A DNA stretch of 64,000 bases from an uncultured delta proteobacterium (GTDB taxonomy: Bacteria > Desulfobacterota > DSM-4660 > Desulfatiglandales > HGW-15), in the NCBI GenBank assembly GCA_963776085.1, contig CAVZMS010000079.1, positions 14,508 through 78,507 of the forward strand. Reading direction: 5' to 3'. Position numbers and translations under genes: made by a program. A model generated the notes under the pieces. It searched no databases and was not told the DNA's origin. It saw only the letters and a program-made list of their open reading frames with translations. Below are positions 1,022-63,165 of this stretch, piece by piece (position 1 is the stretch's first letter; each line of letters starts with the position of its first letter).

Positions 1022-1150
1022 CCGGTTAGGATTTAATATTAATATTGCTTTAATGTACCATGGGGATCTCTTTTCAGAGACGAATTGTTCCCTTGCTGGG
1101 TTTTTGCCCGAATAGGTAGTATGGCGGGCGGAAGGCTTCCGAACAGATTA
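1022..1150 (+). repeat. LHR (long-hairpin repeat) family copy 1, truncated: outer IR plus 5' arm only
   Basis: CCGGTTAGGATTT..ATGTACCATGGGGATCTCTTTTCAGAGACGAA..GGCGGGCGGAAGGCTTCC matches the left half of the full copies at 5576-5857 and 40976-41258. No matching right arm follows. Confidence 0.75.
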
Positions 1151-4147: not shown

Positions 4148-5337
4148 ATGCGTAAAAAGGGTATAAGAGATATAGATATAAAAGGAAAAAGGCTGTTGAT
4201 GAGGGTGGATTTTAACGTCCCCCTTGATGAAAACGGCAATATTACAGATGATAACAGGATACGTGAAACCCTGCCAACGATTGAATATGCCTTAGATAAA
4301 GGAGCCAAGCTGATACTCATGAGCCATCTGGGCAGGCCCAAGGGGCGAGGTAACGGATGCCTTCAGACTCACCCCTGTTGGAAAACGGTTGGAAGAGCTC
4401 CTGAAAAGGCCTGTTAAAAAACTGGATGACTGCATCGGGGCTGGAGGTTGAAAAGGCAGTCAGCGGGATGGGGTCCGGAGATATTATTTTGCTTGAGAAT
4501 CTGCGCTTCCATAAGGAAGAGGAAAAGAATAATCCTGAATTCGCAAAAAAGTTGTCCGGCCTCGCGGACATCTTTGTCAATGATGCCTTCGGCACCTGCC
4601 ACAGGGCCCATGCATCCACTGAGGGCGTAACCCACTTCCTCCCCTCTGTTGCAGGGTTCCTGGTTGAAAAGGAGATCAAATATTTTGAAAAGATAAACCA
4701 GGCCCCTGAAAGACCCTTTGTCCTGGTCCTGGGAGGGGCCAAGGTATCGGATAAGATCCCTATGATAGAAAATATGCTCTCAAAGGCGGATATCATCCTT
4801 ATCGGAGGGGCAATGGCCTATACCTTCCTTAAACAGAAGGGGACAAAGATAGGCTCATCTCGATATGAACAGGATGTGGCTGATACGGCCAGGACCATAC
4901 TGGATAAGGCAAGCTCAAGGGGCGTAGAATTGCTCCTGCCGGTTGACCATGTTGAATGTGATAATATCGAGGCCCCGAAACAGATAAAGACAACCCGTGA
5001 TGCCGAGATTGAAGAGGGATATATGGGCGTCGATATAGGTCCAAAGACCGTAGCCCTTTTTTCTGACAGGCTGAAAAAGGCAAAGACAATTGTCTGGAAC
5101 GGCCCGATGGGGATATTTGAAAGGGATCAGTTCTCAGAGGGGACAAAAAGGATTGCCGAGGCCATCGCAGGGTCTTCCGCCGTTTCTGTTGTGGGAGGCG
5201 GGGACAGCGCCGCGGCAGCAGAAAAATTCGGGGTTAAAGACAGGATTTCTCATATCTCTACAGGCGGCGGCGCATCCCTTGAATACCTTGAAGGCAAGAT
5301 CCTGCCAGGTATAGCGGCATTGGCTGATAAGGAATAA
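4148..5337 (+). pseudogene. pgk: phosphoglycerate kinase, reading frame broken twice
   Basis: The N-terminus ([18 protein letters not shown]) is in frame 2. Residues [32 protein letters not shown] are in frame 0 (about 4350-4445). The remainder (from 4426) is in frame 1. Two apparent 1-nt insertions lie near 4346 and 4447, and all three segments are well conserved. Confidence 0.9.
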
Positions 5338-5347
5338 ATTACATGAG

Positions 5348-5483
5348 GGTTCAAGGATTCAAGGGGTCCAGGTGTCGAGCGAAAAGATAAAGAAGCTCAT
5401 AGCTCATCGCGCAGAGGAATTGAATGTTGAATGTCCAATTTTGAATGATGAGTTTTGTCTCCTGTCTCCTGGCTTCTGACTCC
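5348..5483. repeat. intergenic array with 7-nt periodicity (blocks of degenerate tandem heptamers)
   Basis: Reads in heptamer phase: ggttcaa ggattca .. agctcat agctcat .. aattgaa tgttgaa tgtccaa ttttgaa tgatgag ttttgtc tcctgtc tcctggc ttctgac. Confidence 0.6.
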
Positions 5484-5575
5484 TTTTTTTTGCCCCATGT
5501 TAGGTCACAAATGATATAATCCATGATCATTACAAAGAGATTGTGAAGCAATGTGGAAATATGTATTGGCAGTAT

Positions 5576-5857
5576 CCGGTTAGGATTTTGCGTCTAATAT
5601 TGATCTAATGTCCCATGGGGGTCTCTTTTCAGAGGCGAAATAGTACAGTGCCCGGTATTTTGCATAACTCGTAGCAAAGGCGGGCGGAGGGCTTCCAGCA
5701 AATTACCCACAAAGGAGGGGTAGCTATCTACCCGGAACTCCGCCGCCCGCCTGACGACATCCTTATGCCGGTTCCTTGCAAATTATTTCTTCGCCTCTGA
5801 AAAGAGACCCCCGTGGGACATACCTGCACTTAAATCTTTATGCAAAATCCTAACGGG
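5576..5857 (+). repeat. LHR family copy 2 (full, with outer inverted repeat)
   Basis: Core is 5608-5821: ATGTCCCATGGGGGTCTCTTTTCAGAGGCGAAA ... TTCGCCTCTGAAAAGAGACCCCCGTGGGACAT. Outer IR is CCGGTTAGGATTTTGC (5576) / GCAAAATCCTAACGGG (to 5857). Confidence 0.85.
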
Positions 5858-5890
5858 ACAACCGTGAGAATATATATAAAAGGAGAAATC

Positions 5891-7130
5891 TTGTTTTTTA
5901 AGGTCAAGACAGCCGAAGAAGTCCTTGAAATTCTTAAGAGTTTCTCTCCACTGGGAGAGGAGACCGTGTCCCTTGAAGACTCCATCAACCGTGTCCTCAG
6001 TCAAAAGATCGTTAGTCAAGAGGACCTCCCCGAGTTTCCCAGGTCTTCGATGGACGGTTACGCGGTCAGGGCAAGAGACACCTTTGGCGCCACAGAAGGG
6101 CTTCCCGCATCTCTGGAACTCGCAGGGGAGATACTCATCGGCAGGACCCCTGAGATATCGGTTGGTCCGGGCAAGGCAGTCAGGATACCCACCGGAGGGA
6201 TGATGCCTGAGGGTGCGGATGCGGTAGTCATGGTTGAATACTCTCATCCCCTGGATGATAAGACCATAGAGATCAGCCGTGCCGTATCTCCACTGGAGAA
6301 TGTTATCAATACCGGCGATGATTTCAGAAAAGGCGTAATGATATTTGAAAAAGGCGTCCTGTCTGAGGCCTCAGGACCTCGGTCTCCTAGCAGGGCTTGG
6401 CATATCCGCAGTCTCAGTCTACAAAAGGGCAAGGGTCGCAATCATCCCCACTGGTGATGAGATCGTCCCGATTGATCAAAGGCCCATGCCAGGCCAGGTG
6501 CGTGATATAAACAGTTATACATTGACCGCCTTCTGCCGCCAGGCCGGGGCAATACCCATCAACTTGGGGCTATGCAAAGACAACTTCGCCATCCTGAGGG
6601 AGATGGTTAAAAGGGGCCTTGATATTGCCGACACCCTGTGGATATCCGGTGGCAGTTCCATTGGGACAAGGGATATGACTGTAAAGGTCCTGGAGTCCTT
6701 TGATGACGTGGAAATACTTGTCCATGGCATATCAATAAGTCCAGGAAAACCCACAATAATCGCGAGGATCGGCAGCAAGGCCGTGTTCGGCCTGCCGGGA
6801 CATGCCGCCTCTGCCCTGGTAGTTGCTGAAATCTTCCTGACCCCGTTTTTATCAAGGTTGTCAGGTGATATTAATGCCTTTGAGGACACCCATTTTTATA
6901 TGGATGCCGAACTCACCCAGAATATAGAATCAGCAAGCGGCAGGGATGATTATATCAGGGTAAGACTTGAAAAAAGAGACGGGCGGTTATTCGCTGAACC
7001 GATCTTCGGCAAATCTGGGCTGATATCCACCCTGGTTGAGGCCCATAGTCTATTAAAGATAGACAGGAATACAGAGGGCCTTTATAAGGGACAGGCAGTA
7101 AAGGTAATGCTTTTTAAGGGCTATTCATGA
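5891..7130 (+). pseudogene. moeA: molybdopterin molybdotransferase MoeA, one frameshift
   Basis: MoeA motifs (SSMDGYAVRA, PTGGMMPEGADAVV, ISGGSSIG, PGKP). The frame changes near 6362 (ORFs 5840-6457 and 6345-7130). The likely start is TTG 5891 behind AAGGAG, because the ATG at 5840 lies inside the LHR repeat. Confidence 0.8.
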
Positions 7131-9923: not shown

Positions 9924-9965
9924 TTGAGTTGAGTTGATAAGAACGCGCTTTTTGATGAACAGGAT
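9922..9965 (+). repeat. direct repeat DR-A copy 1
   Basis: GTTGATAAGAACGCGCTTTTTGATGAAC (9933-9960), preceded by TTGAGTTGA reiterations that start inside the last codons of mobB. The same core recurs at 10795-10822 and 11798-11825. Confidence 0.75.
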
Positions 9966-9993
9966 AACAAAAAATGAAAAAATAAATGAACTA

Positions 9994-10065: not shown

Positions 10066-10395
10066 TTAGAATGCAAATAGCCTTTGTAATACGGAAATAA
10101 CTTTCAATTGGGTCTCTGAGCCGATAATGCCAAGGTTTTTTATAAGTCGTGTCTTATCTATTGTCCGTATCTGATCTAAAACTATCTGGCCCTTTTTATT
10201 TTTAAAGTGACATGCAACCCTCGTTGGGTAATCTTTTCCCGTTGTCGTCATGGGGGCAACTATAACGGTGCGGATATGCGTATTCATTTCATCCGGTGAA
10301 ATGATCAAACAAGGGCGTGTCTTTTTAATCTCAAAACCAATAGTGGGGTCGAGATTTGCCAGGCATACATCGAATCGTTTTATTTCCATTGCCAT
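10066..10395 (-). CDS. mazF: MazF/PemK-family endoribonuclease toxin
   Basis: 109 aa. The pattern (DPTIGFEIKKTRPCLIISPD.., VAPMT) is typical of the PemK/MazF fold. It overlaps the upstream antitoxin gene by 16 nt. Confidence 0.85.
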   Translation of the reverse strand: MAMEIKRFDVCLANLDPTIGFEIKKTRPCLIISPDEMNTHIRTVIVAPMTTTGKDYPTRVACHFKNKKGQIVLDQIRTIDKTRLIKNLGIIGSETQLKVISVLQRLFAF

Positions 10396-10788: not shown

Positions 10789-10850
10789 AGTTGAGTTGAT
10801 AAGAACGCGTTTTTTGATGAACGGAGCATAGAGAATTTCTCATTGCATGA
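10789..10850 (+). repeat. direct repeat DR-A copy 2 (extended form)
   Basis: AAGTTGAGTTGATAAGAACGCGTTTTTTGATGAACGGAGCATAGAGAATTTCTCATTGCATGA shares about 55 nt with copy 3. Confidence 0.75.
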
Positions 10851-11766: not shown

Positions 11767-11797
11767 GGCTTTCTTTGCCTCCACTGGTAAGAAGATA

Positions 11798-11853
11798 GTT
11801 GATAAGAACGCGCTTTTTGATGAACGGAGGATAGAGAATATAGCATTGTATGT
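11798..11853 (+). repeat. direct repeat DR-A copy 3 (extended form)
   Basis: GTTGATAAGAACGCGCTTTTTGATGAACGGAGGATAGAGAATATAGCATTGTATGT lies 32 nt upstream of the lipoprotein start codon. Confidence 0.75.
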
Positions 11854-12483: not shown

Positions 12484-13781
12484 TCAATGCTTAAATGCCC
12501 TCTGCCCCGTAAAAACCATGGTCACCTGGGGATTGGCCTCGTTGCATGCCTCGATGACCTCAAAATCCCTCATTGAACCTCCCGGCTGTACAACGGCATT
12601 TATCCCTTCCTTGATGCCAACATCCACCCCATCCCTGAAAGGAAAGAATGCGTCAGACACCATTGTTGAACCGATGAGACCTCCCCTTGCATCTTTTGTT
12701 TCATGATCAATTTCATCTAATAATGCCTGTTTCCTTTTCTCCCTTTTTAATCATAAGCTCAAGATCTTTGTACGGCAGGCCATACCGGGTGAAACAGATA
12801 GCATCGGCATATTTGGTGTAGGCCTTGAAGACCGCGATCTCGGCAACACCCACCCTGTCCTGCTCGCCAGTGCCTATACCCACGGTCACACCGTCTTTGA
12901 CATAGATGACCGAGTTGGAGGTTATCCCCTGCTCAACCTGCCATCCAAAGAGCATGTCAGCATAATCCTTCTCCGTCGGTTTTCTTTCAATCGCATAGGT
13001 CTTTCCCTTATACTCAACAACAGCAGGGAGAAAATCAGCGGGTGTCTTTATCCTGTTGAGCGGAGACTGCTGAACTATGATACCTCCGTCAATAAGGCTC
13101 TTGAAGTCCACAAACCTGACGCTCGGAATAGTATGAGAGGTCATCGATGCGGTTTATCCGCACTATCCTGAGGTTGGCGCTCTTTGTCAGGAGGCTGATT
13201 GAACCCTCTTCAAAATCCGGGGCCGCAACCACCTCCAGGTAGTTCTGTGATACCAGCTCAGCGGTCTCTTTGTCCAAGGCGCGGTTAAATACGGCGCATC
13301 CGCCGAAGGCGGCTATCCTGTCCGCCATATTGGCCCTTGTGTAGGCATCGGAAAGGCTTGAGCCATAGGCCACGCCACAGGGATTATTGTGTTTGACGAT
13401 CACGGCCGCCGGCCTGTCTGAAAGATACTTAATTATATTAATGCCGTTGTCTATATCGGTCAGATTTGTCTTCCCCGGATGTTTTCCTGTCTGTATCATG
13501 TCCTCAACGGGGATGGAGGAAACAAGGCCCCTCCCCGGTTCAATGAACCTGCAATCGCCCAGCATCAGGTTTCCGTTGACAAGTTCATAAAGGGCTGCTT
13601 CCTGTCCCGGGTTTTCGCCATAGCGTAGTCCCTTATCAATGAGTTCCCCTGTTTTTTCATCAGGGATCATCCAACTCCTCTTTCGATAGACAAGCATCTG
13701 ATTCCCGAATGATATAGTAAACTCCGGCGGAAAATGGTCATCCATTACTGTCCGATACATCTTTTTCAGATCTTTCGTCAT
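12484..13781 (-). pseudogene. purH: AICAR formyltransferase (PurH, AICARFT-only archaeal type), two frameshifts
   Basis: Three consecutive frames: 13781-13140 (GENPGQEAALY, VKHNNPCG), 13144-12725 (GIGTGEQDRVG) and 12725-12484 ([32 protein letters not shown]). No MGS/IMP cyclohydrolase domain is present. Confidence 0.85.
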
Positions 13782-14619: not shown

Positions 14620-14697
14620 GATCTCCCCAAACTTTTTTTCTGAAGGTTTCTTTTTAAAATCACCTGGATTCAAAGTCAATAAAAAGATATAATTATC

Positions 14698-14837
14698 AGT
14701 TGTCCGTTGTCAGTTGTCAGTTGTCATTGTCAGTTGTCCGTTGTCGTTGTCCGTTGTCCATTGTTTGTTGTCAGTTGTCAGTTGTAGCTGACTTCTCATG
14801 CATGGCTTCTGGCTCCTGACTCCTGTCTTCTGTATCT
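14698..14837. repeat. tandem (A/C)GTTGTC heptamer array (~13 units) followed by a TGNCTYC heptamer block
   Basis: agttgtc cgttgtc agttgtc agttgtc attgtc agttgtc cgttgtc gttgtc cgttgtc .. then tggcttc tggctcc tgactcc tgtcttc tgtatct. Lies between the folE2 start and tRNA-Pro. Confidence 0.85.
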
Positions 14838-14882: not shown

Positions 14883-14959
<77 letters not shown>

Positions 14960-19197: not shown

Positions 19198-19287
19198 TTA
19201 TTACAGAATACACTAATACAATCTTTTTTGGAATCCTGATAATAAATCTTTGAACTTTAGAATATTGAAGTTTATTCTTCTCTTCGA

Positions 19288-19330
19288 AATTCATCATTCA
19301 ATATTGGAAATTCAACATTCAATCCAATCC
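19288..19330. repeat. short ATTCAAN heptamer-periodic block
   Basis: attcatc attcaat attggaa attcaac attcaat ccaatcc. The reverse complement resembles 5418-5450 and the interior of LHR copy 7. Confidence 0.5.
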
Positions 19331-24702: not shown

Positions 24703-24714
24703 AGGAAATAAATC

Positions 24715-26529: not shown

Positions 26530-26648
26530 AATTACCTCCTTGTGTAATGGCCGCATCCCGTAGCCGTTTTTAAAACGCCTTAGATTCTGCCAGGTCCTAT
26601 ATTATTAAAGACCGTTAGGTCCCTAATTCCATACACCCTAAATCGATA

Positions 26649-28129: not shown

Positions 28130-28491
28130 TTCAACCTCCTTGGTCTTGAATTGTTCAAAAGTAAATATGATAAATGTTTTTTGTCAAAATATCAGAAAAA
28201 TATTTATTTGTAAATAAATATAAACCTTATGTTATCTATATTACTTCTTGCCAAGACGCTCCAAATGAATGCCTGCCCACCGCTCTGAACTTTTTTATAA
28301 AATGCGTTTTTACTATCTTCCGTCGCATGTGCACAAAAAATTGTGATCCATGCACAAAATTATATGCAATATCCTCCTCTCATGAAAATCATCACTTATC
28401 ATCCTTCGTTTATTCCATGCTTAAATGTAAATCGATTCTTTCTGATAACCTTATGAAATAATGAGGGAATCAGCTTTTTTGCCCATGATGG

Positions 28492-28985
28492 GGGACGTCC
28501 TTAAATAAGTAAATAACATGACAAGATTTTATTGATATGCTATTTATTAAAGCATGCTAAGACAATCTCGATTAGAAGCACCGGGGTTTTGCACCATGCC
28601 ATTATCAGGGGCATAGAACGCCGCAAGATATTCAGTGATGACAAGGACGGGGACAACTTTATTGAACGGCTTGATATCCTCCTGCCCAAAGCCCATATCA
28701 CATGCTATGCATGGGCTCTCTTATCCAATCATGCATATTTCCTATTCAAAACCGCAAAACCCATGAAAATGGGGACGGGAGCCGGATAATGGCAAGGGTT
28801 GATGCAAGGGGTTTATATTGCTACTGGGCGGCAAGAGAGCTGAGATATCCTTTGGCAGAACTTGCCAGAAGATTGAACATAAAGGCTCCCGGAGTTGTAT
28901 ATGCTGTCAGAAGAGGCGAAAGTATCTCCAAAGAGTCTGATTACAACTTGATAGATTGAGTTAGTTACTTAATTAAGGACGTCCC
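28492..28985 (+). mobile_element. decayed RAYT/IS200-like (Y1 HUH transposase) element bounded by 26-bp inverted repeats
   Basis: Left end GGGACGTCCTTAAATAAGTAAATAAC (28492-28517) versus reverse complement of the right end GGGACGTCCTTAATTAAGTAACTAAC (28960-28985): 24 of 26 identical. Confidence 0.7.
28532..28959 (+). pseudogene. REP-associated tyrosine transposase-like gene remnant (internal deletion)
   Basis: N-terminal piece LHHAIIRGIERRKIFSDDKDGDNFIERL..CYAWALLSNHAYFLF, where the HUH position reads HAY. The C-terminal piece in another frame is GLYCYWAARELRYPLAELARRLNIKAPGVVYAVRRGE (HTH). The catalytic middle is missing. Confidence 0.7.
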
Positions 28986-29330
28986 TCTCAAGCTCATAAA
29001 AAAAGTGCTAAAGACGAAAAAACTGTTTTTTAATACATTCGGATATGCTATAGGATCAATTTAATATACATATTCATTTATATTTAATTATTTGATTCCC
29101 CTATCAATTCAAACAAATGAAAATTGTAACCCAATTTCCTGTCCACTTTTAATTGGGACCATAAATCATCAGCGGGACTGGTAGAGCTAAATTGAAAATA
29201 GCTATTTATAAATGAGTACGATTCGTCAGATTTTTTGATCTTCAATATTATATCTACCGTATCATTTTCGTATAATATGTATTAAGACGTATCAGCAATT
29301 AAGCATAAAGAACACTTTCTTCCAGGAGGA

Positions 29331-31131
29331 ATGAAAATGTGGAAGACGATCAGTTCAGGGTTGGCCGGCGTTGAACCCGCCGTAAGACAATTTCTCCCAC
29401 CCTGTCAAATACGCTGCCCAATCAACGAGGATATCCAAAGGACTAATGTCCTTATATCCCTCCTTCCCGAAGACCCGGAATTGGCTACAGAGGGGATTAT
29501 CCAGATCGGTGATTATCTTTATGAGAAAAACCCCTTCTTTCCTGTATGCGGTTACGTGTGCGGTCTGTGTGAACTGGAATGCAATTATCAGTCAAAAGGA
29601 GGTGCTATAAGGAGGAGGCTCCTCAAGAGGTTTATCGCTGATACATACATCTATCATATGGATAAAAAAGAAGAACTTTCCATAGTAAAGAACAAGGAGA
29701 ATGTCGCGGTTATTGGAGGGGGGCCAGCGGGGCTCATGTGTGCATATGACCTCAGCAAACGGGGATACAGGGTCACTATCTTTGAGGCCTCAGATCGCCT
29801 GGGAGGGGCACTATGGTTGATCCCCCGATACCGGTTGCCGGAAAAGGTGCTTTCCTCCACCCTCGAGAATATCGTCAGGCTGGTTGGGGTGGATGTCAAA
29901 TACAACACCAAGATAGGCAGAGGGCAAGTTAAACCTGGAAAAGCTCAGAAATGAGGGATATCAGGCCGTCTTTATCGCAATCGGTACCCCGGCCCCCCGG
30001 ACCCTCACCTTTGGAAGGAAAGAGGTCAAGGGCCAGGAACTCTCCGGGGTCATGTACGGCCAGACATTCCTCTACGAGGTCAGCCACGGTAATATAAAGC
30101 CCAATTATTTTAAAGGGAAAAAGGTCATGGTTATCGGCGGCGGGAACGTTGCCTTTGATGTGGCCAGGACCGCGAGAAGGCTTGGGGGAGATACGAGCAT
30201 CATCTGCCTGGAATGTGAGGACAGGAATTCCATTGACCGGATACCGGCAGACTGGGATGAGATACGTGGCGCATGGGAAGAGGGGATAAAGATCATCTAT
30301 TCCAGGGGTGTGAGCCAGATAATAGAGACAGGCGAAAAAATGCTTAAGATCGAGTGTCCCAAATGCACCAGTGTTTATGACCCAGGTTTTAACCCTAAGT
30401 TCGATATGACGGACATGATCACACTTGAAGGCGATATACTGATCATCACGGTGGGGCAAGGGCCGGATATCCAGTCTCTTAAGAAGGAGGATCTTCTCAA
30501 CGAAAGGGGGCAACTTGCCATAGACCCGCTGACCCTCCAGAGCCTTAAAAAGGAATGGGTATTTATTGGAGGGGATGTGCGTAGGATAGGTTTCATGGTG
30601 GATGCCATGAAGGATGGACTGACTGCCGCCGAATCCATTGAGAGATATCTGAAAGGGCTGCATATCAGTGAGGGGAGAAAAAGGGATTTTGAGTCTCAGG
30701 ACATCCCTAGGAGGAGATCATATGAGGCAGAACCCGAGGTGCTGTGGATCCCGCCGGAAAAGAGGATGCACTTCCAGCTCTTCGAAAAGGGCTTCACCCT
30801 GACCGAGGCTATTGAAGAGGCCAAACGTTGCCTTACATGCGGCCCTTGTATCTCATGCAAGGCATGCCTCTCCGTGGGTATCCAGGAACAGATAGCCCCT
30901 GTCGAGGTGAATCCTGACCGGTGTTGCGGGTGCGGGATATGCGTTTCTGTCTGTTACTACGGCGCGGCCCTGTCAAAAGAGATTGAATCCAAGCGGATCT
31001 CCATAACAGATACGTTTAAATGCAAATCCTGCGGCATGTGCGTTGTGGCCTGCCCTTCCAATGCAAGGAAGCTAGTGGATGACAGTTTGGAACGAAGGAC
31101 AGAAGCAGTTTACGCTGCCCTTCAGGGATAA
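29331..31131 (+). pseudogene. GltD/NfnB/HdrA-like FAD/NAD(P)-dependent oxidoreductase with C-terminal 2x[4Fe-4S] ferredoxin domain, one frameshift
   Basis: N-terminal Cys cluster (CGYVCGLCELEC), dinucleotide folds VAVIGGGPAGL and VMVIGGGNVAFD, and C-terminal CCGCGICVSVC / CKSCGMCVVACP. The frame changes near 29925. Confidence 0.75.
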
Positions 31132-31146
31132 AGGAGGAGATAGGAA

Positions 31147-31541
31147 ATGGCTGCATTTGAACCCAAAATGGTTTGCTTTTCCTGCAATTTCGGGTGGGGA
31201 TACCTGAGCGATAAGATGGAGCTATCCTCAGGCATAAAGAACTGGATTCCTGAGATATGCAGTGGAAAGATCGACACCAAACACATTCTTAATGCCTTCA
31301 GGGCAGGAGCCGACGGTGTGCTCATCCTAGGGTGTCCTGAAGGACACTGTCATTTCCAGGATGGAAACTACCAGACCAGGAAGAAGGTCTATCTTATCCA
31401 GAAGGTCATGAGGCCTTCGGTATAGAGCCTGAAAGGCTGGGTATGGACATGTCCCGCGACCCGGAAGGTAAAAATATTCCCCAGCTTGTACAGGAGATGA
31501 AGGAACGTCTGGTCAAGCTGGGACCGATCAAGAGCATGTAA
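31147..31541 (+). pseudogene. mvhD: MvhD-like hydrogenase iron-sulfur subunit, one frameshift
   Basis: VCFSCNFGWGY..ICSGKID..GADGVLILGCPEGHCHFQDGN is the MvhD/HdrA-C-terminal-like fold. The tail EAFGIEPERLGMDM.. continues in another frame after about 31408. Confidence 0.75.
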
Positions 31542-31561
31542 CCCCATAAGGAGAGACTGAG

Positions 31562-32551
31562 ATGCCGCAGAAACCCAAAGTTGCCATCTATTGGTTGGGG
31601 GCATGTGCAGGATGCGATGAGGCCATCGTTGACCTGAATGAGGCGATTTTGCCGGTAACCGATGCGATTGATATTGTCCTGTGGCCGGTGGCCATGGACT
31701 TTAAGTATGAAAAGATACGTTCCATGGAAGACGGAGAGATCGCCCTGAGCATCCTGTCGGGCTCGGTCAGGAATTCCGACCATCAGGAGATGGCCGAGTT
31801 GCTGAGAAAAAAATCGCAAATGGTCCTTGCCTTTGGTACATGCGCCTGCTTCGGCGGGACCCCGGGTCTGGCCAACTTTACCACAAGAGAGGATATATTC
31901 AACTGGGTCTACAGGGATGCCCCGACCGTTGTCAATCCGAACAACTACTTTCCCTCAACCCGAGACCGATGTGAACGGTAAAACACTAACCCTTCCCGAA
32001 TTTTTCGAACATGTCTTTACGCTGAACCAGTTCATTGATGTGGACTACTACCTTCCGGGGTGTCCACCGCCGCCGGATTTGATCTCCAATGCCATCAATT
32101 CTGTCCTTTCCGGCGCATCTTCCGCCAAAGGGCTCCACCCTGGCGCCCAGAAAGGCCCTTTGCGATACCTGCCCGAGAAACAAGAGAAAACCAAGTCGCA
32201 TGGAGATAAAGAGATTTCAAGAGGATCCATGATGTGGATGCGGATCCCGGAAGCCTGTTTTCTGGCAGCAGGGAATCATCTGTCTTGGACCTGCAACCCG
32301 TACCGGCTGCGGTGAGAGCTGCATCACGGATAAATATCCCCTGCCGCGGGTGTTTCGGCCCTGTTCCGGGCGTCGTGGGCTCCGGCCCCAAGTTCCTGTC
32401 CACATTGACCTCTCTGCTTCAGGTTGAAAAAGATGAAGACATCAGAAGAGGCCATCGACTCGATAGATGATCCTGCGGGTATCTGTATCGTTTTACCCAG
32501 CCTTCATCCATCCTGGGAAGAAGAAGCCCTAAGAAACATATGGAGGATTAA
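31562..32551 (+). pseudogene. mvhG: [NiFe] hydrogenase small subunit (MvhG-like), at least six frameshifts
   Basis: Conserved pieces occur in alternating frames: WLGACAGCDEAIVDL, AFGTCACFGG, YLPGCPPPPDLI, LPPKGSTLAPRKALCDTCPR, QGIICLGPATRTGCGESC, IPCRGCFGPVPGV, YRFTQPSSIL. Confidence 0.8.
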
Positions 32552-32554
32552 AAA

Positions 32555-34022
32555 ATGCCGGCAAGAAAGATAACTATCGATCCCATCACACGCTTGAAGG
32601 TCACGGAAAGATAGAGATCTTCCTGGATAACAAGGGGAACGTGGAGGATGCCTTCTGGCAGGTTACCGAATTGAGGGGTTTTGAACGGTTCTGCATCGGA
32701 AGGCCGGCTGAGGAGATGACGAGAATCGTCCCCAACATCTGCGGCGTGTGCCCTTCGGCCCATCATATGGCCGCCATCAAAGGCACTCGACGATCTTTAC
32801 AACGTTGAACCGACGACGACTGCAAAGCTTATAAGACAACTGGAATTCAACGCCTTCTATATCGAAGACCACTACATCCACTTCTTCTTCCTGGCGGCGC
32901 CTGATTTCGTGGTAGGCCCGGACGCGGATCCCGCTGAAAGAAACATCCTGGGCGTGATTCGGCAGGTAGGAAAGGATATCGGATCCAGGGTTATTGAGGT
33001 GAGAAAAAGGAACCGGGAGATCATCAAGCTCCTCTTCAGCAAGGCGCCTCACCCGGAAGGGGGTCTGCCCGGCGGAGTTTCGAGAGGTGTCTCCCCGGAA
33101 GAGAGAAAATGGATCAAAGAAACTGCGGACTATTCCGTTGAGTTTGCACAGTTCGCCATCGAGTTGTTCAAAGACATCGTGCTGAGGAACAAGAAATATC
33201 TCGACCTGGTCCTAAGCGACGCCTACAGTCTAAAGACCTACTATATGAGCCTGGTGGACGAAAATAACAAGGTCAATTTCTATAATGGCATGGTCAAAGT
33301 CATTGATCCGAACGGCAACGAATTTGCCCGTTTTGAACCCCGGGAATATGTTGAACACATAGCGGAATGGGTTGAGCCATGGAGTTATATCAAGTTCAGT
33401 CACCTGAGAAAAATAGGATGGAAGGGACTTATCGAGGGTGATGGGACATCCCTGTACCGCGTTGCCCCTCTTGCCCGGTTGAATGTGGCGGACGGCATGG
33501 CCACTCCACTTGCAGAGAAGGAGTATGTGCAGATGTTCGACACCCTGGGAGGAAAGCCTGCCCATCACACACTGGCCATGCACTGGGCCAGGCTGATCTG
33601 CGCTCTTCAGGCAGCCGAGCACAATCAACTGATCGCAAGCGATCCTCTTCTAACCAGCAAAGATATCCGCAACATGAATCTGCGTTTAAAAAAGGTTGGC
33701 ATCGGCTGTGTGGAGGCCCCCCGGGGGACCCTCTTCCATCACTACGAGACCGACGACCGTGGTCATTTTGACCAAGGTCAATCTGATCGTGGCCACACAG
33801 AACAACGCCGGTCCTATCTCGTTGTCCGTCAAAAAGGCGGCCAAGGAGTTTATCAAGGGAGAAAAGGTCAAGGAAGGTCTGCTCAACAGGGTGGAGATGG
33901 CCTTCCGCGCCTATGATCCCTGCCTCTCATGCGCCACACATGCCCTGCCCGGCCAGATGCCCTTGACGCTCAATATCAGGAGCCCCGACGGGACCCTCAT
34001 CAGGACAGTGAAGAGGCCTTAG
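32555..34022 (+). pseudogene. mvhA: [NiFe] hydrogenase large subunit (MvhA-like, group 3), three frameshifts
   Basis: MPARKITIDPITRLEGHGKIE (shift near 32600), NICGVCPSAHH (shift near 32790), APRGTLFHHY (shift near 33760), C-terminal DPCLSCATH. The Ni-binding Cys motifs are intact. Confidence 0.88.
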
Positions 34023-34023
34023 A

Positions 34024-34474
34024 TTGAAGACCCTCATCCTAGGAATAGGCAATCCCATCCTGTGCGATGATGGGGTGGGATTACATATCGCCTCGGAATT
34101 GGACGGGGTCTTCGATGATATTGAGATTTCCACTACAACCATGATCGACCTTAATCTCCTTGATACGCTGGCTGATTACGACAAGGCTGTTCATCATTGA
34201 TGCGATCCAGACCGGAACCTCTTGCATCGGGACAGTAAAGAGACTTTCGCCGGGAGAAGGTTCATTGCATCTATCCTCCTCCCACGGCATACATTTTTTT
34301 GAACTCCTGCAACTGGGAAGGGATCTGGGTTACAGGATCCCAGAGATAGGCGGCATATATGGAATAGAGATAGGTGAAGGATCTATCTTTGGGACAAAAC
34401 TCTCTCCGGAGCTAATAAGCAAAAAGAAAGATATAGCTCATGAGATAATCGAGGATATAAGGAAAGAGTTATAA
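34024..34474 (+). pseudogene. hydrogenase maturation endopeptidase (HycI/HoxW/FrhD family), one frameshift
   Basis: LKTLILGIGNPILCDDGVGLHIA.. then, after a shift near 34190, IIDAIQTG..HLSSSHG. A TTG start lies immediately after the mvhA stop. Confidence 0.75.
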
Positions 34475-34482
34475 TATGTTCA

Positions 34483-34688
34483 GCCGGGGGCGGGGGTCTC
34501 TTTTCAGAGGCGAAAATATAAATTGCAAGGTAATTAGCATAAGTCGTACAAGGCGGGCGGCGAAGGGTAGATAGCAAATTAGCCTCAATGGAGGATTAGC
34601 TATCTAGCCAACTTCCGCCCGCCTTTGTACGAAGTTATGCAAAATTCCTTACATAATTCGCCTCTGAAAAGAGACCCCCACCCCCGGC
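34483..34688 (-). repeat. LHR family copy 3 (divergent, more symmetric)
   Basis: GCCGGGGGCGGGGGTCTCTTTTCAGAGGCGAAA ... TTCGCCTCTGAAAAGAGACCCCCACCCCCGGC. It fills the space between the convergent protease and hypB genes. Confidence 0.85.
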
Positions 34689-34701
34689 GAAGCAACCCGG
34701 G

Positions 34702-36746: not shown

Positions 36747-36825
36747 TCGTCACTCCTCTTACCATTAGCTTATATAGTGAACGCATTAAATAATTGGTTA
36801 TATTGTCCTTCATCATTATCATATT

Positions 36826-37051
36826 ATGTCCGGCATGGGTCTCTTTTCAGAGGCGAAATGTTCAGTGCCCGGTATTTTTCATAACTCGTAGCAAAGGCGT
36901 GCAGAGGGCTTCCAGCGGACTAACCACGAAGGAGAGGCAGCTATCTACCAGGAACTTCGCCGCATTGCAATACCGCTTGAGTGACCATCTCCTTATGCCG
37001 GTTCCTTGCATATCATTTCTTCGCCTCTGAAAAGAGACCTATGCCGGACAT
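36826..37051 (+). repeat. LHR family copy 4
   Basis: ATGTCCGGCATGGGTCTCTTTTCAGAGGCGAAA ... TTCGCCTCTGAAAAGAGACCTATGCCGGACAT. It lies between hypD and hypE, antisense to them, and its 3' arm carries a small insertion. Confidence 0.85.
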
Positions 37052-37083
37052 CCATGCTCGCCTTTAAAAATATGGCTACTTGT

Positions 37084-38178
37084 TTATGGCCTATGATACT
37101 TATAATAGGCCGCGCATGTCCCTTCACTTGAGACCATGCACGGTCCAACAGGTTGGACAGGGGTGCAGACCTTTTTATACAAGGGACAATCAATGGGTGT
37201 CTTCAGGCCTATTATTATATCTCCGCACGCACAACCCTTCGGCTCTTCGGGTTCCGGCACATGAAATTCCAGCATCTTTTTAGCGTCAAATTCCTTAAAA
37301 TCTTCTTTTACCGTGAGACCACTTTCAGGTATTATGCCTATTCCCCTCCAGTTCAGCATCGGTCTTCTCAAAGACATCCCCTATTATTTTTTGAGCCTTT
37401 CTATTGCCTTCTGATGTGACAATTCTCTGATATCCGTTTAATAGCTCGGCCCTTCCTCCCTCTATCTGCTCGATTAGTGAATATATCACCTGGAGAATAT
37501 CCATGGGCTCAAACCCGGAGATCACCGATGGGACGCGGTACTTATTAAAAAAAGGCCGATAACCTTCGGTCCCGATGATCACCGAGACATGCCCCGGCAG
37601 GATAAATCCGTTTACCCTTATACCAGGCTTTTCCATAAGGGCGGTTAATGCGGGCGGTATAAGTTTGTGTGCCGAATAGACATAGAAATTTTTAAGGTTC
37701 ATATTACGCGCTGATATAACTGATGGCTGCTACGGTCGGCGCTGTGGTCTCGAAACCCACACCTGCAAAGACCACCTTTTTATGCGGATTATTCCTTCGC
37801 GATCCTTAATGCGTCAGTGGTGGAATAGACCATGCGTATATCACGCCCTTTCGCACGCTCCTTCTGAAGGGATGACCTGGTCCCCGGCACCCTTATCAGG
37901 TCTCCGAAGGTCGCCAGGATAACATTATCCATCCCTGCGATCTCGATAAATGAATCAATATCCAAAAGACTTGTGACACACACGGGACAGCCAGGGCCTG
38001 AAATAAGTGAGATCGTCTCTGGCAGCAATCCCCTGATGCCGCTCCTGAAGATCGAGACCGTGTGTGTGCCGCAGACCTCCATGAGGCAGACAGGTCTCTT
38101 ACTGATCCTCTTTATATTATCGGCGATTTTCCTGCAGATATCAGGCGCCCTGTAATCCTCTAAATATTTTATGGACAT
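37084..38178 (-). pseudogene. hypD: hydrogenase maturation protein HypD, three frameshifts
   Basis: Segments are 38178-37795 (MEVCGTHT, GPGCPVCV), 37795-37705 (FAGVGFETTAP), 37702-37350 and 37377-37084 (C-terminal CxxC..PxHVS-like region). Confidence 0.88.
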
Positions 38179-38197: not shown

Positions 38198-40495
38198 TCA
38201 TCTCCGTGCTATTGCGGCGGCGACCATTGCCTGCCCGAGGCAGATACCTCCGTCATTGGTCGGGACAATCCTGTGGCTAAAGACCTGAAGGCCTCTGTCT
38301 TCAAGTGCCTTGGTCAAACCTGTAAGCAGGATGGAATTTTGAAATACCCCTCCGCTCATTACCACCCTTTTGATATCCCTTTCCCTGCTCACAATCTCAC
38401 ATATGTCGCTAAACAACCTGATCAAGCGTGCAATGGAATTTCGCGCTGATTTCGGAAGGCCTTATCCCCTTCAGGAAATCTTCAACTACACCCCGCACAA
38501 TAGGCCGGGGCATAATCCTGTAATATTCGCCTGACTCCCATTCATAGTTATAATGTGCCTCCGTGATCTGATCCGCCGCCATCTCCAGCTCCATTGCGGC
38601 CTGACCCTCAAAATAGACCCTGCTTCTTACTCCCGTAATGGCGGCGATCCCGTCAAATAACCGGCCAAGGCTGGATGTAAGGGGCGAATTTATGCCCTTG
38701 GAGATCATCTTAATTATGGTTTCCATGCTTTTTTTCACCTGTCTCTCTTATGACAGGAATACCGAGTTCCCGCAACCCTTCCCCATAGGCGTCATAAAGG
38801 TAACTGACTGCCATCCTCCATGGTTCCTTTATAGCGGCCGCTCCTCCCGGCATAGGCGTATATGACAGAGCAGCAGCCCTTGAAAAGCCTTTCTCATCCG
38901 CAACAAGCACTTCCCCTCCCCAGATTGTACCGTCCAGTCCGTAACCTGTCCCGTCAAAGGAGAGCCCGATAACATCACCTTGCAGACTATTTTCCGCCAT
39001 ACAACTCACAATATGCGCATGGTGATGCTGGACCTGTATCTTTTTGATATCTGCCTGTTCTTCCGCATAGCGCGTGCTCAGATAATCCGGATGAAGGTCA
39101 TAGGCTATTATCTCAGGGTCTATGCGGAGTATCTGTTTCAAATGCCTGATTGTCATTTGAAAGAACTCGTAAGAAGCGAGGTTTTCCAGATCCCCGATGT
39201 GCTGGCTTAGATAGGCCTTATCCCCCTTTGCTAAGACAGACCGTATTTTTTAATTCCGCGCCGCAGGCAAGGACCGGCGGGAGATCGGCCTTTAAGAATA
39301 CAGGCATTGGCACATATCCCCTTGAACGGCGTATAACCCTTGTGGCACCTGCAGTCCGCCTTATTATGGAGTCGTCGCTTCGCAGATAGATATCCCTGTT
39401 ATGTATCAAAAAGAGATCCGCAATATTTGAAAGACGGTCAAAGGCCTCGTCGTTGTCAATGGCAATAGGCTCGTCGCTTATGTTTCCGCTTGTCATGACA
39501 AGGGCAATGAAATCATACTGCAACAGAAGGTAATGCAGCGGCGTGTAAGGCAGCATGACCCCGAAATATCTGTTCCGCGGGGCTACGTTCTCCGCGATAC
39601 GATTTGGGCGCTTTTTTCTCAGCAAGACAATGGGGCGCTGAACGGATATGAGCAGTTCCTCTTCCGCGGGATCCACATAGGCATATTTACGTATATTTTC
39701 CACATCATAGGACATTATGGCAAACGGCTTCTCTTCACGTTGTTTCCTTTCCCTGAGCAGTGCAACCGCCTCTCCATTCTCTGCATCCGCAACAAGGTGA
39801 AACCCTCCCAGACCCTTAATAGCCAAGATTTTGCCCTTTTTCACGAGTTCGATGGCCTGCCTTATGGGATCTATTGTCTCTATAGAATTTCGACGATTAT
39901 CATATAATCTGACTTGTGGACCGCACTCCCGGCAGGCATTTGGCTGGGCGTGGAACCTCCTGTTTCCCGGATCATCATATTCAGCCTGACATCTGGCGCA
40001 CATGTAAAACTTTGCCATAGAGGTGTAGGGCCGGTCATAGGGGATATTATTAATTATTGTATAACGAGGTCCGCAGTTGGTACAGTTGATGAAAGGATAT
40101 CTGTATCGGCGATCTTCAGGATCCAGCATCTCCCTGAGGCAATCTTTGCAGATTGAGATATCAGGGGATATAAGGGTGGAAAAGGCATCTCGGTTTATGC
40201 TCTTTGCAATGGCGAATTCCTTGAAATTCCTGACAGGTGCGGATTTGGATAAGATCTCCGTTATATATGCCAGCGGCGGGCGTTTTTCATGAAGGTCCCT
40301 GGAAAAGGAGTCAATATCCCCTTTAATGCCTTCAACATGCAATGAAACGCCTGTGGTCGTGTTGGATATCTTCCCCTTCAGGCCGTAATGAAGCGCAAGC
40401 CTGTAGACAAACGGACGAAACCCTATTCCCTGAACAACACCCTTTATCGTAAAACTGCGCGCAACGAAATCCTTTTTCATGGCCTCGTCCATCAC
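38198..40495 (-). pseudogene. hypF: carbamoyltransferase HypF, three frameshifts
   Basis: Acylphosphatase domain, two zinc fingers (CKDC..CTNCGPRY; CARCQAEY..CRECGP), YrdC-like and Kae1-like parts, spread over ORFs 40495-39218, 39156-38710, 38738-38409 and 38425-38198. Confidence 0.9.
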
Positions 40496-40732: not shown

Positions 40733-40975
40733 GATCATCCGCTCCATTAGTATATTTTGGGTCTTCTGATAAGCTGTTTGAATCCGAGGGGATACGGTGA
40801 CCACCTCCGGATATTACAGCGGTTTAGTAATCTATCAAGGGCATGGAATCAAGTCAATGCTGCTAACAAATATATGCTGCTTTCCATAATAAGCATTGTG
40901 AAGGCCGAAATTAAGTCTCGGCATTTCGGGCAACTAGTCCATTGAGACTTGAATCTTACTCATATTCACCGATGT

Positions 40976-41258
40976 CCGGTTAGAATTTTGCATGATAAAT
41001 TTACTGTATATATGTCCGGCAGGGATCTCTTTTCAGAGGCGAAAATTTTATAAGCAAGGAATCAGCATAAGGATGTCGTCAGGCGGGCGGCGAAGTTCCG
41101 AGTAGATAGCCGGTCCTCCTTCCTGGTTAATTTGGCTGGAAGCCCTCCGCCCGCCTTGCTACGAGTTATGCAAAATACCGGGCACTGTACGATTTCGCCT
41201 TCGAAAAGAGATCCCTGCCGGACATCGGATCAATATTAGTATGCAAAATCCTAACCGG
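40976..41258 (-). repeat. LHR family copy 5 (full, perfect outer stem, with outer inverted repeat)
   Basis: Core is 41012-41225: ATGTCCGGCAGGGATCTC...GAGATCCCTGCCGGACAT. Outer IR is CCGGTTAGAATTTTGCAT / ATGCAAAATCCTAACCGG. Confidence 0.88.
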
Positions 41259-41480
41259 ATATCGCGAATCATATTTTAACCTAATGGCTATTTTTCTCCG
41301 TCTTATGAAATTTCAAATTCCCTTTTTTATTGACCATCTTTTCTTATAAATGGTATTAAGATTACAGCTTTATTGCCAAATTCCAATGCGCTCCACCAAG
41401 TCATAATTCTTACTTTAAATTGTCTGGCAACCAGATTGTTTGAGGATTATAAATCCATGATTCAATAAGGAGGCATCACT

Positions 41481-57921: not shown

Positions 57922-57960
57922 CTCTTCATATATTTGCTAAATTTAATAGCTTTACTATAT

Positions 57961-58173
57961 TGTCCCTCAAGGATCTCTTTTTCAGGGGCGAAAATTTAAT
58001 AAGCAAGGAATCGGCATAAGGATGTCGTCAGGCGGGCGGCGAAGTTCCGAGTAGATAGCTACCCCTCCTTCCTAGTTAATTTTGCTGGAAGCCCTCCGCC
58101 CGTCTTGCTGCGAGTTATGCAAAATGCCGGGTACTGTATGATTTCGCCTTCGAAAAGAGATCCCTGAGGGACA
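57961..58173 (-). repeat. LHR family copy 6
   Basis: TGTCCCTCAAGGATCTCTTTTTCAGGGGCGAAA ... TTTCGCCTTCGAAAAGAGATCCCTGAGGGACA. The interior is nearly identical to copy 5. Confidence 0.88.
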
Positions 58174-58245
58174 CAATATCTATACGGTATTCCAATCCGA
58201 AATCGCTAACCTTACACCCTATGCCTTGCGCCCCGCTCCTATATT

Positions 58246-59061: not shown

Positions 59062-59277
59062 CCCCTTCTTTTGATGGATTTCGGCTGTTTTTTTCTTTTA
59101 TATAAAACGAAAGTAAATTACCCGCCGGCTGAAACCGGTAGCTTTTATTTATATAATAGTCGAACTGAAGTTTCACTTAAAGATAAGGCCGGACAATCAT
59201 GAGCATGCAAACACCTTTCAACATCCAATTGATTTATGCCGGCCATTCGGAAAGAATAATTTTGATGGATTGACTTG

Positions 59278-60302
59278 TTACTTATATGTCTCTCTTTTCA
59301 ATTCCCTTGTCATGAGTTCCCTGACCGCTGACCTTGGGTCTTTCCCCCGATAAAGGATCTCATAGACCTGATTGATGATTGGCATATCAACCCCCATCTT
59401 TTTTGCCAGACTGAAATGCGGAGATGGATGTCTTTATGCCTTCCGCCACCATATTCATATCCTTTGTTATCTCCTCCAAACCCATCCCTTTACCGATCTT
59501 CAAGCCTACCATCCTGTTCCTGCTAAGATCACCGGTACATGTCAGAACAAGATCTCCTATACCGGATAATCCTGCAAAGGTCATAGGCTTAGCCCCCATT
59601 GCTACTCCAAGTCTGGTGATCTCTGCCAAACCCCTGGTAATCAAGGCGGCCCTAGCATTAAGACCGAATCCGAGTCCATCCGCGGCACCTGATGCTATCG
59701 CTATTACGTTCTTAAGAGCCCCGCACAGCTGAACGCCCACAAGATCATCACTGATATAGACCCTGAAGAACTCTGTTGAAAAAAGTGTCTGCAGCTGTGA
59801 TGCATGGCTCATGTCCCGGCATGAGATTGTCACCGCTGTTGGCTGTTTTGCGATTACTTCCCTGGCAAAGCTCGGCCCTGCCAGGCATGCGAAAAGTCTC
59901 GAATAATCCTGTGGCAGTACCTCCTCAACAACCTGAGACATTATCTTAAGAGTTTCATTCTCTATGCCCTTGGTTGCTGATCATAAGCTTCATATTCTGT
60001 TGAAGATAAGGCCTAATATCCTGCAGCACCTCCCTGAAGACATGGGATGGAACAACCATAAGGACAAGATCTTTATCAGAGAGGGCTTCTTCAAAGGTCT
60101 TAACGGGATTAAACATGGAACCGAGCTTTATTCCTGGTAAAAAGGTCTTGTTAATTCTATCTTCCTTTATCTGGTTATATACCTCTTCCTCCCTTACCCA
60201 CAGATCTACAAAAAACCCCTTTTCCGCTAAAAGATTGGCCAGGGTAGTGCCCCAGCTGCCGGCCCCTATTACCCCTATTCTCGTGATATCCATTTTAGAC
60301 AT
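59278..60302 (-). pseudogene. gpsA: NAD(P)H-dependent glycerol-3-phosphate dehydrogenase, two frameshifts
   Basis: N-terminus IGVIGAGSWGTTLA (60302-59955), middle ALKNVIAIASG (59941-59400), and tail LAKKMGVDMPIINQVYEILYRGKDP in a third frame ending at 59278. Confidence 0.88.
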
Positions 60303-60316
60303 TAATATTTCTCTAT

Positions 60317-62734: not shown

Positions 62735-62810
62735 AATTCGTATTCTCCAAAAATCAAGTTATAGTGAACGACATAAATAAGTAGCTATATTTGTGAAAGC
62801 AGGCATATGG

Positions 62811-63113
62811 ATGTCCGGCATGGGTCTCTTTTCGAAGGCGAAATTGTACAGTGCCTGATATTTTGCATAACTCGTAGCAAAGGCGGGTGGAGGGTATATC
62901 GCATCACGCAAGGTGCATAGCGCGGAGAATCTCAAAAGAGAATATTGAATGATGAACATGGAATTTTAAATTTTGAATTTTGCCTCCCGCCAATATTCAA
63001 CATTCTGAAATCGATATTCAATATCATATTATATTATTTCGCCTCTAAAAAGAGACCCCATATCGGACATCTATAGAAATCACGATGGTTAAGATGCAAA
63101 ATTATTAACTCGG
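62811..63113 (+). repeat. LHR family copy 7 (chimeric: normal termini and 5' arm, replaced interior)
   Basis: ATGTCCGGCATGGGTCTCTTTTCGAAGGCGAAATTGTACAGTGCCTGATATTTTGCATAACTCGTAGCAAAGGCGGGTGGAGG, then about 140 nt of AT-rich heptamer-periodic sequence, then TTTCGCCTCTAAAAAGAGACCCCATATCGGACAT. Outer-IR-like ATGCAAAATTATTAACTCGG extends to 63113. Confidence 0.8.
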
Positions 63114-63165
63114 TCACTATATAATACCATTAGTTTGAGACGATAGGCCTTTTGCCTTTCGCCTA

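Follow-up and report, generated by a model that had tools for sequence, protein, structure and literature searches.

Long-hairpin repeats of an uncultured delta proteobacterium: a layered and probably MITE-like family

The ERIC/IRU, RUP and BOX families of enterobacteria and pneumococci are imperfect palindromic intergenic repeats of 100-130 bp that are co-transcribed with genes, and BOX is modular. The insertion of one miniature inverted-repeat transposable element (MITE) into another is known from plants and cyanobacteria, and hairpin-associated small inversions recur among close relatives in chloroplast spacers. In this study, we analysed a 64,000-nucleotide stretch of contig CAVZMS010000079.1 from an uncultured delta proteobacterium (hereafter the window), in which a first-pass annotation had noticed a dense family of long-hairpin repeats (LHR) and had likened them to MITE, REPIN or Correia elements. 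This likeness was supported by insertion polymorphism, by target duplications at the outer layers of the element, by the many copies and by their decay in place. With a probability of about 0.78, we believe that the repeats are lineage-restricted, non-autonomous, non-coding MITE-like mobile DNA, which is composite and nested and is moved in trans. Terminal inverted repeats (TIRs), target duplications, insertion polymorphism, nesting, inversion and decay were observed directly. The family is new and its kind, the bacterial MITE-like palindromic repeats, is well known; the layered architecture is unusual.

Like bacterial MITEs (PMC10969869), the LHR elements are small (~215-360 bp), non-coding and multi-copy, carry TIRs and target duplications, are mostly intergenic and strain-polymorphic, and have no transposase of their own. 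They differ from them in that one palindromic core occurs in at least three outer layers (shells) with differing ends and duplications (9 bp versus TA), in that the core itself ends without a duplication, and in that neither the window nor ~650 kb of related loci gave a parent insertion sequence (IS). Correia elements of Neisseria are TA-bounded, hairpin-forming MITEs that lie inside operons and invert in place, and their transcribed copies are cut by RNase III (PMC10969869). The LHR elements resemble them in forming hairpins, in the TA bounds of one of their shells, in lying inside operons and in inverting in place. In contrast, Correia elements are 100-200 bp long, have a single layer and live in an unrelated host phylum, and no IHF site or promoter was found in the LHR element; the two are likened here by description. 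Correia ends, which we take to start with TATAG, would also be similar to the ends of one LHR shell, shell B (TATAGTG… with TA flanks).

REPINs, for which compensatory changes are reported to be common, share with the LHR family a long hairpin, two inverted conserved ends and a variable, compensated stem (PMC3116915). They too are a non-autonomous, vertically persisting repeat population, in which singlets are what remains of doublets, comparable to the half copies here. However, the LHR core is two to three times longer, has a large conserved non-palindromic interior and sits in shells with duplications; because size and interior do not fit, membership of the REPIN/RAYT system cannot be claimed. 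The LHR family shares with ERIC/IRU, RUP and BOX the features named above, except for their smaller size. To our knowledge, the nesting of several TIR-bearing layers has not been described for these three families, and we know of no sequence relation between them and LHR. Compared with other nested MITEs, the same inner element is present here in nearly every copy of each shell, and therefore shell and core amplify together. Our literature search gave nothing relevant on MITEs in Desulfobacter-like bacteria or on nested bacterial MITEs.

Core, shells and target duplications

Copies in the window were located by repeat finding and by blastn with 5576-5857 as the query, and were scored with an nhmmer profile built from 52 aligned copies. 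All seven copies proposed in the first-pass annotation were recovered by the three methods, and the profile detected no further copy in the window (Table 1). The window was also compared with 127 metagenome contig loci (~650 kb), which are designated by L-numbers such as L007 and L128.

When the copies were aligned with their flanks, the constant unit proved to be a 214-bp quasi-palindromic core, ATGTCC…GGACAT. From outside to inside, the core consists of 33-nt terminal arms (ATGTCC, a variable stretch of 5-10 nt and the invariant TCTCTTTTCRRAGGCGAA), inner arms of ~40 nt per side, which are conserved in sequence and mutually non-complementary, a 12-bp GC clamp and an asymmetric centre. The termini, the clamp and the centre, which had been described from the window alone, were all present and conserved across the 52 aligned copies. 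The clamp helix was nearly invariant, with one pair doubly changed in one sequence. The core arms (32-33 nt) were 94-97% complementary and contained small, weak local hairpins, and the spacer of ~150 bp between them was conserved and largely unpaired. The region 5576-5857 folded into one long hairpin, as had been expected from inspection. The free energy of the plus-strand RNA was -141.9 kcal/mol, compared with -80.8 ± 5.2 kcal/mol for shuffled sequences (z = -11.8), and the z values of the minus-strand RNA and of single-stranded DNA were -10.4 and -10.3, respectively.

Outside the core, the repeated sequence falls into discrete classes, shells A, B and E, each with its own TIRs, and beyond the TIRs of each shell the sequence is unique. 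The TIR of shell A is CAGCGATGTCCGGTTAGAATTTTGCAT, which contains the outer repeat noted earlier, the TIR of shell E is GGTAACGTTCAAAAGTGTATGCA, and the TIR of shell B is TATAGTGAACG…CGTTCACTATA. The duplication is ~9 bp at shells A and E and TA at shell B. The outer inverted repeat that had been reported for copies 1, 2 and 5 is real and belongs to shell A, whereas the partial one reported for copy 7 is shell B, which is common to copy 4. A recognisable A or B flank was found in 45 of the 57 unique full-length cores. The length of a composite, that is, a core in an A, B or E shell, is ~300-360 bp, and the overall range including the bare core is 214-360 bp. We believe that the moving unit is usually this composite of ~300-360 bp and not the ~215-bp hairpin alone. 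An octamer, ATGTCCGG, is common to the end of the A shell and the end of the core.

Four orders of nesting were found, B>core, A>core, E>A>core and B>A>core, where X>Y means that Y is nested inside X. In the window, copies 4 and 7 are B>core and copies 1, 5 and 6 are A>core. The order E>A>core was found in L060, L088 and L128, and copy 2 of the window has it in decayed form, resembling the full composites of L060 and L088 over ~5535-5872; B>A>core was found at L076:3734-4153. Both orientations of the core relative to the shell occur, in numbers of ~22 versus 9 for shell A and 11 versus 3 for shell B.

No obvious target-site duplication had been seen in the first-pass annotation, which is wrong for the shells, because 9-bp duplications bound shells A and E, for example at copy 5. 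Perfect 9/9 duplications were found by the automated test in L028 (AAGCAATGA) and L076 (TAAATCCTT) and by eye in L026 (GGTATGATT). Duplications with 8/9 identity include those of window copy 5, L047 and L024 (automated) and of L027 and L074 (by eye). At a threshold of at least 8/9 identity, 6 of the 24 copies tested had a duplication, compared with 0.8% of 2000 mismatched flank pairs. TA bounds every B shell, which is compatible with a TA duplication.

Table 1. Positions of the LHR copies and of their parts in the window (E values are from the nhmmer profile)
Feature	Position	Strand	nhmmer match (E value)	Description
Copy 1 (half copy)	1022..1150	+	1054-1151 (7e-14)	Left A-shell repeat and left core half; ends just past the GC clamp
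Copy 2	5576..5857	+		214-bp core within A shell
A-shell left inverted repeat, copy 2	5576..5591	+		CCGGTTAGGATTTTGC
Core, copy 2	5608-5821	+	5608-5821 (5e-68)	Part conserved in every family member
Core left terminal arm, copy 2	5608..5640	+		ATGTCC, variable stretch, TCTCTTTTCRRAGGCGAA
GC clamp left half, copy 2	5678..5689	+		AGGCGGGCGGAG
Asymmetric centre, copy 2	5690..5737	+		GGCTTCCAGC…AAGGAGG…GCTATCTAC; sets the core orientation
GC clamp right half, copy 2	5738..5752	+		CTCCGCCGCCCGCCT
Core right terminal arm, copy 2	5789..5821	+		Complementary to 5608-5640 (32 nt, 97%)
A-shell right inverted repeat, copy 2	5842..5857	+		GCAAAATCCTAACGGG
Copy 3	34483..34688	-	Core 34489-34682 (1e-37)	Downstream of hypB
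Copy 4	36773..37098	+	Core 36826-37051 (1e-52)	Core in B shell starting TATAGTGAACG; between hypD and hypE
Target-site duplication, copy 5, left	40958..40966			ACTCATATT
Copy 5	40967..41266	-	Core 41012-41225 (4e-78)	Complete A-shell composite; TIRs CACCGATGTCCGG… / …CCGGATATCGCG
Target-site duplication, copy 5, right	41267..41275			AATCATATT; 8/9 identical to left
Copy 6	57940..58209	-	Core 57961-58173 (1e-68)	Core with degenerate A shell; between biotin-ligase gene and fmdE-like gene
Relic of an eighth element	59187..59226	-		40-nt E>A shell remnant without core
Copy 7	62760..63121	+	62812-63069 (1e-29)	B-shell composite; between gyrB and gyrA

Distribution, polymorphism and change in place

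A degenerate terminal 20-mer matched at least 120 stretches in metagenome contigs, and a search of the window and the 127 loci with nhmmer yielded 64 full-length cores (~214 bp), many of them at contig ends. The suspicion that further copies exist outside the window was thus borne out by contigs of related bacteria from sediment and soil metagenomes. The exact terminal 20-mer had three matches only in 185,579 species-representative genomes (GTDB), which were single matches of 20-31 nt, lacked a partner arm and any other similarity to the element and were taken to be chance, and searches of plasmid, phage and viral collections gave no match to the element. Among named proteins, the HypE and GyrA of the window are closest to those of metagenome-assembled genomes labelled Deltaproteobacteria, Thermodesulfobacteriota, Desulfatiglandales or Desulfobacteraceae, which puts the family in an uncultured lineage of Thermodesulfobacteriota. 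The host is an uncultured sulfate-reducer-like Thermodesulfobacteriota ("deltaproteobacterial") lineage. In the window, the density is ~one copy per 9 kb.

The presence of copies at orthologous sites varied, with both gain and loss, which agrees with the reading of the repeats as mobile elements. At the site of copy 4, the hypD-hypE spacer was ~340 bp in the window and 29 bp in L007 (85% HypE identity). At the site of copy 6, the spacer was 324 bp in the window and 20-71 bp in L007, L128 and L131. At the site of copy 7, the gyrB-gyrA spacer was 431 bp in the window and 100-124 bp in L128, L132 and L133; this copy was present in L131 (97% GyrA identity) and absent in L128-L130, L132, L133 and L012. 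Conversely, positions 24704-24708 of the window are unoccupied, and L072 (~89% identical) has a 306-bp insertion there, consisting of the A-shell left arm and the core. Position 26640 of the window is empty as well, and a B-shell element lies there in L034, with a full core, and in L072, with a miniature core remnant only. In the gpsA-birA spacer, L128 and L129 have a complete E>A>core composite, of which the window and L131 keep the 40-nt shell relic. The presence of copies differed even between relatives that are 96-97% identical. The copy downstream of hypB, on the other hand, persists in genomes that are merely 83-85% identical.

The heptamer ATGTCAT was considered as a target or footprint of the element and was rejected. 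It occurred at 3 of 7 unoccupied sites, namely L083:3090 (the apex of a core-less B shell), L007:9985 (hypD-hypE spacer) and L128:2975 (gyrB-gyrA spacer), but in just one of these cases does it lie at a junction; this is unexplained, and its presence at emptied sites may be chance (~1% expected per spacer).

At three orthologous sites, the core was inverted between strains while the flanks or the shell orientation were kept. These were the hypD-hypE site (window versus L005 and L006), the site of copy 6 (window versus L021) and the site downstream of hypB (L007 versus L045). The flipped forms constitute sequence sub-lineages, which indicates that inversion is rare relative to copying. The orientations that had been read from the asymmetric centres of the window copies (+,+,-,+,-,-,+) were reproduced, except that copy 3 is nearly symmetric and scored 124 versus 103 bits on the two strands. 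The termini of copy 3 are GC-rich (GCCGGGGG…) in place of ATGTCC. Its inner arms and centre have turned symmetric, one inner arm and half of the centre having been copied onto the opposite side.

The two arms of the core change together. In the terminal helix, double changes were found at 14 of the 28 pairs, and there were 106 double-change cells, compared with 28 ± 6 in shuffled alignments, none of the 500 shuffles reaching the observed number. The cells of this helix were paired in 96% of cases, compared with 40-56% when the partners were slid by one to three columns. At the hypB site, L007 and the window have terminal stems with many differing positions, and the stem pairs in both. The complementarity of the arms is probably maintained by hairpin-templated conversion. 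Because such conversion, if real, would yield covariation, the covariation is not by itself evidence for an RNA.

The tip of the hairpin is a hotspot of change. The clamp and the centre are where internal truncation points cluster, and the centre is the preferred spot for truncation and foreign inserts. Copies 1 and 7 are broken at the tip region, and the relic is degraded too. In copy 7, the core arms (62811-62897 and 63032-63070) remain and the centre (62898-63031) has been swapped for unrelated sequence. Small palindromes were inserted at the hairpin tip in L016, L026 and L084, and only the base of the stem was left in L083 (ATGTCAT) and L023 (ATGTACCCCGGGGGACAT). Gene-order breaks between strains coincide with copies 3 and 6.

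Several families of small palindromic repeats were seen in the genomes with LHR. Palindromes lie inside LHR copies at L026:3286-3538, L034, L084:1220-1511, L016:2431-2800, L099, L011:2390-2535 and L038:640-900. The kinds of insert were a 39-nt hairpin CCCTTCGAC…GTCGAACGGG, a palindromic centre of ~270 nt, a palindrome of ~150 bp in an A shell and a unit of the GTCATTCCGGCGAAAGGCGGAATCC type. A second small repeat, ATTGAATGTTGAATG…TTTTGAATGATGA, was observed in the window at 5419-5455, just upstream of copy 2, at 19287-19323, where it is inverted, and at 62940-63010, within the replaced centre of copy 7, and also at L005:8130-8165. At copy 3, it was further observed that this copy forms one edge of a 6.4-kb segment (28232-34698) which is missing from L005 and L006 (94-97% identical), where hypB is directly followed by the PPK2 region.

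Movement of the composites and rival explanations

The composites are probably cut and pasted, or copied, with the help of transposases whose genes lie in other parts of the genome. Shells A and E would depend on a DDE-type enzyme that makes 9-bp staggered cuts, and shell B on a TA-targeting enzyme of the IS630/mariner type. The core is carried inside the shells and flips in place between its inverted arms, probably via recombination or template switching. After insertion, copies undergo truncation, deletion and palindrome capture at the tip, and finally decay to relics. As for the host, copies inside operons would put a long hairpin into the mRNA, where it is a potential target of RNase III.

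The absence of coding capacity and of a transposase, both noted from the letters alone, was confirmed. The sole open reading frames (ORFs) within the copies were, by eye, of ~12-19 codons, started from the palindromic ATG ends and ran across the covarying positions, and no Pfam-bearing ORF overlapped a copy. When 50 ORFs of the window were scanned against Pfam, no transposase, integrase or recombinase domain, and among these no Y1_Tnp domain, was found. A gene associated with the family was sought by clustering ~1000 ORFs of the loci and was rejected, as the clusters were orthologues from overlapping contigs and one weak (~28% identity) unannotated multi-locus family. Pairs of core or shell ends that lay 0.45-4 kb apart were merely adjacent separate copies.

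Several points weigh against the reading of the repeats as composites moved in trans. Neither the window nor the ~650 kb of loci yielded an autonomous parent or a transposase with matching ends, and for this reason movement in trans is what we infer. The terminal TA of the B shell is indistinguishable from part of the inverted repeat. At the junctions of the core with the shells or with unique DNA, there was no duplication beyond the palindromic AT. Shells that never held a core were not seen among the copies examined. It is odd that one core occurs in three shells with differing target duplications; the route of the core into them is unexplained, and the shared core is the sole feature of the family still without an explanation. 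Finally, strong covariation of the terminal helix is unexpected for terminal repeats that are bound by a transposase, and it suggests that a further constraint or process acts on the hairpin.

Some of these points leave room for another reading, which we consider unlikely. Here the core would be an independent element without target duplication that targets hairpins or other transposons, in effect a selfish hairpin that parasitises transposons. It would home to the middle of small transposons, or would turn ISs into MITEs through hairpin-provoked symmetric deletions, and so become the passenger of at least three unrelated transposition systems; hairpin-templated repair would keep its arms complementary and flip its body. 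The room for this reading comes from the core shared by three shells, from the lack of a duplication of its own, from the missing never-core shell and from the octamer ATGTCCGG.

Slightly less probable again is a REPIN-like core whose movement, in the form of a single-stranded DNA hairpin, would be due to an HUH tyrosine transposase (RAYT or IS200/IS605-like) encoded in a single copy. This enzyme would recognise the conserved subterminal motif and the stem, the shells being landing places. The invariant ATGTCC and TCTCTTTTCRRAGGCGAA do flank a stem that varies in sequence and yet is paired, as the double changes show. The core ends lack a duplication of the target, each arm contains small local hairpins, and no transposase lies nearby. 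On the core-forward strand, G.T wobbles outnumber A.C mismatches (44 versus 22), which is the sole strand-specific hint; it is weak, however, since the wobble counts are not independent. Other results do not suit such an enzyme. The core is 214 bp long, of which a conserved non-palindromic interior makes up ~150 bp, and so exceeds described REPINs two- to threefold in size; neither a conserved 5' tetranucleotide nor a fixed flanking base was seen, and no Y1 transposase was found among the scanned ORFs of the window. The datable events are whole-shell insertions that come with 9-bp or TA duplications, and HUH enzymes do not behave in this way. IS200/IS605-derived palindromic elements (PATEs) have neither TIRs nor target duplications and insert 3' of a fixed tetra- or pentanucleotide, and the LHR element does not fit them, given its long TIRs, the unconserved bases at the core ends and the shell duplications.

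It is very unlikely that the copies are structured-RNA genes or cis elements, that is, hairpins for processing, stability or termination that are conserved for their function. The very stable hairpin (z = -11.8), the significant covariation of the terminal helix, the weak G.U excess, the terminator-like starts of the arms and the persistence of the hypB-downstream copy at 83-85% genome identity would all suit an RNA. However, the two strands do not differ in how well they fold, the inner arms show conservation without pairing, and copies decay. The core at one and the same locus is inverted between strains, its presence varies among 96-97% identical relatives, and its orientation bears no relation to that of the flanking genes: where the neighbouring genes are co-directional, 10 cores had the same orientation as these and 18 the opposite one. 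Rfam gave no family in the region 5500-5900 at E ≤ 10, in line with the first impression that the family has no name, and tRNA-Pro alone in the whole window at gathering thresholds. A role as intrinsic terminator was rejected, as convergent genes flank only 4 of 39 copies and two copies of the window lie inside operons. A small peptide read from the terminal ATG was rejected as well, since the covariation with the other arm falls on its codons 3-4.

An invertible switch, in which a site-specific recombinase flips the core to regulate neighbouring genes, is hardly credible: orientation does differ at 3/3 orthologous sites with more than one occupied genome and both orientations occur in shells A and B, so that inversion itself is observed, but the element has no promoter-like site, the window has no recombinase gene, the copies are dispersed by the dozen, with flipped forms in sub-lineages and flips rare compared with copying, and inversion between inverted arms needs no dedicated enzyme, as reported for Correia elements (PMC10969869).

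Gene context and other features of the window

The window has the content of ordinary chromosomal DNA, including ddl, parAB, pgk, moeA, the hyp operon and gyrBA. Contrary to the claim that all copies are intergenic, copy 4 is not purely so: at 37084-37098, its B shell overlaps the 3' end of hypD and gives the gene its last three codons and its stop codon. The C-terminus of HypD is …YHRP* in the window, …YYRT* in L005 and …YFST* in L007, where the site is unoccupied.

Copies of the family thus sit in essential operons, gyrB-gyrA and hypD-hypE, and the family disrupts metagenome assemblies, with many contigs ending inside a copy. Because of its density, the assembly breaks, the operon positions and the gene-order breaks, the family matters for binning, for strain comparison and for studies of operon expression. 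In annotation, it is advisable to mask them as mobile repeats rather than to call them RNA genes or regulatory sites; this applies to every copy of the family. The layered architecture is also a compact natural example of MITE nesting, in-place inversion and decay.

Some further features of the window were observed. Frameshifts split pgk, moeA, purH, hypD, hypF and gpsA into two or three ORFs (4148-5337, 5840-7130, 12713-13781, 37084-38178, 38409-40495 and 59387-60302), and these genes are intact in close relatives. The split housekeeping genes are probably indel errors of long-read assembly and not real pseudogenes. The gyrA-gpsA spacer is 4 bp in the window (60310-60315), and ~240 bp of extra non-LHR sequence is present in it at L012:3106-3348, L021:2493-2726 and L128:5418-5670.

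A 56-nt unit, AGTTGATAAGAACGCGYTTTTTGATGAACGGAG, occurs in three direct copies (9932-9987, 10794-10849 and 11797-11852) at spacings of 862 and 1003 bp. These units bracket a MazF/PemK toxin ORF (10066-10395) and a 273-aa ORF without a Pfam match, and have the look of a cassette array. A short tandem array of TTGTCAGTTGTCCG-like units (14693-14780) lies just upstream of the tRNA-Pro gene (14883-14959).

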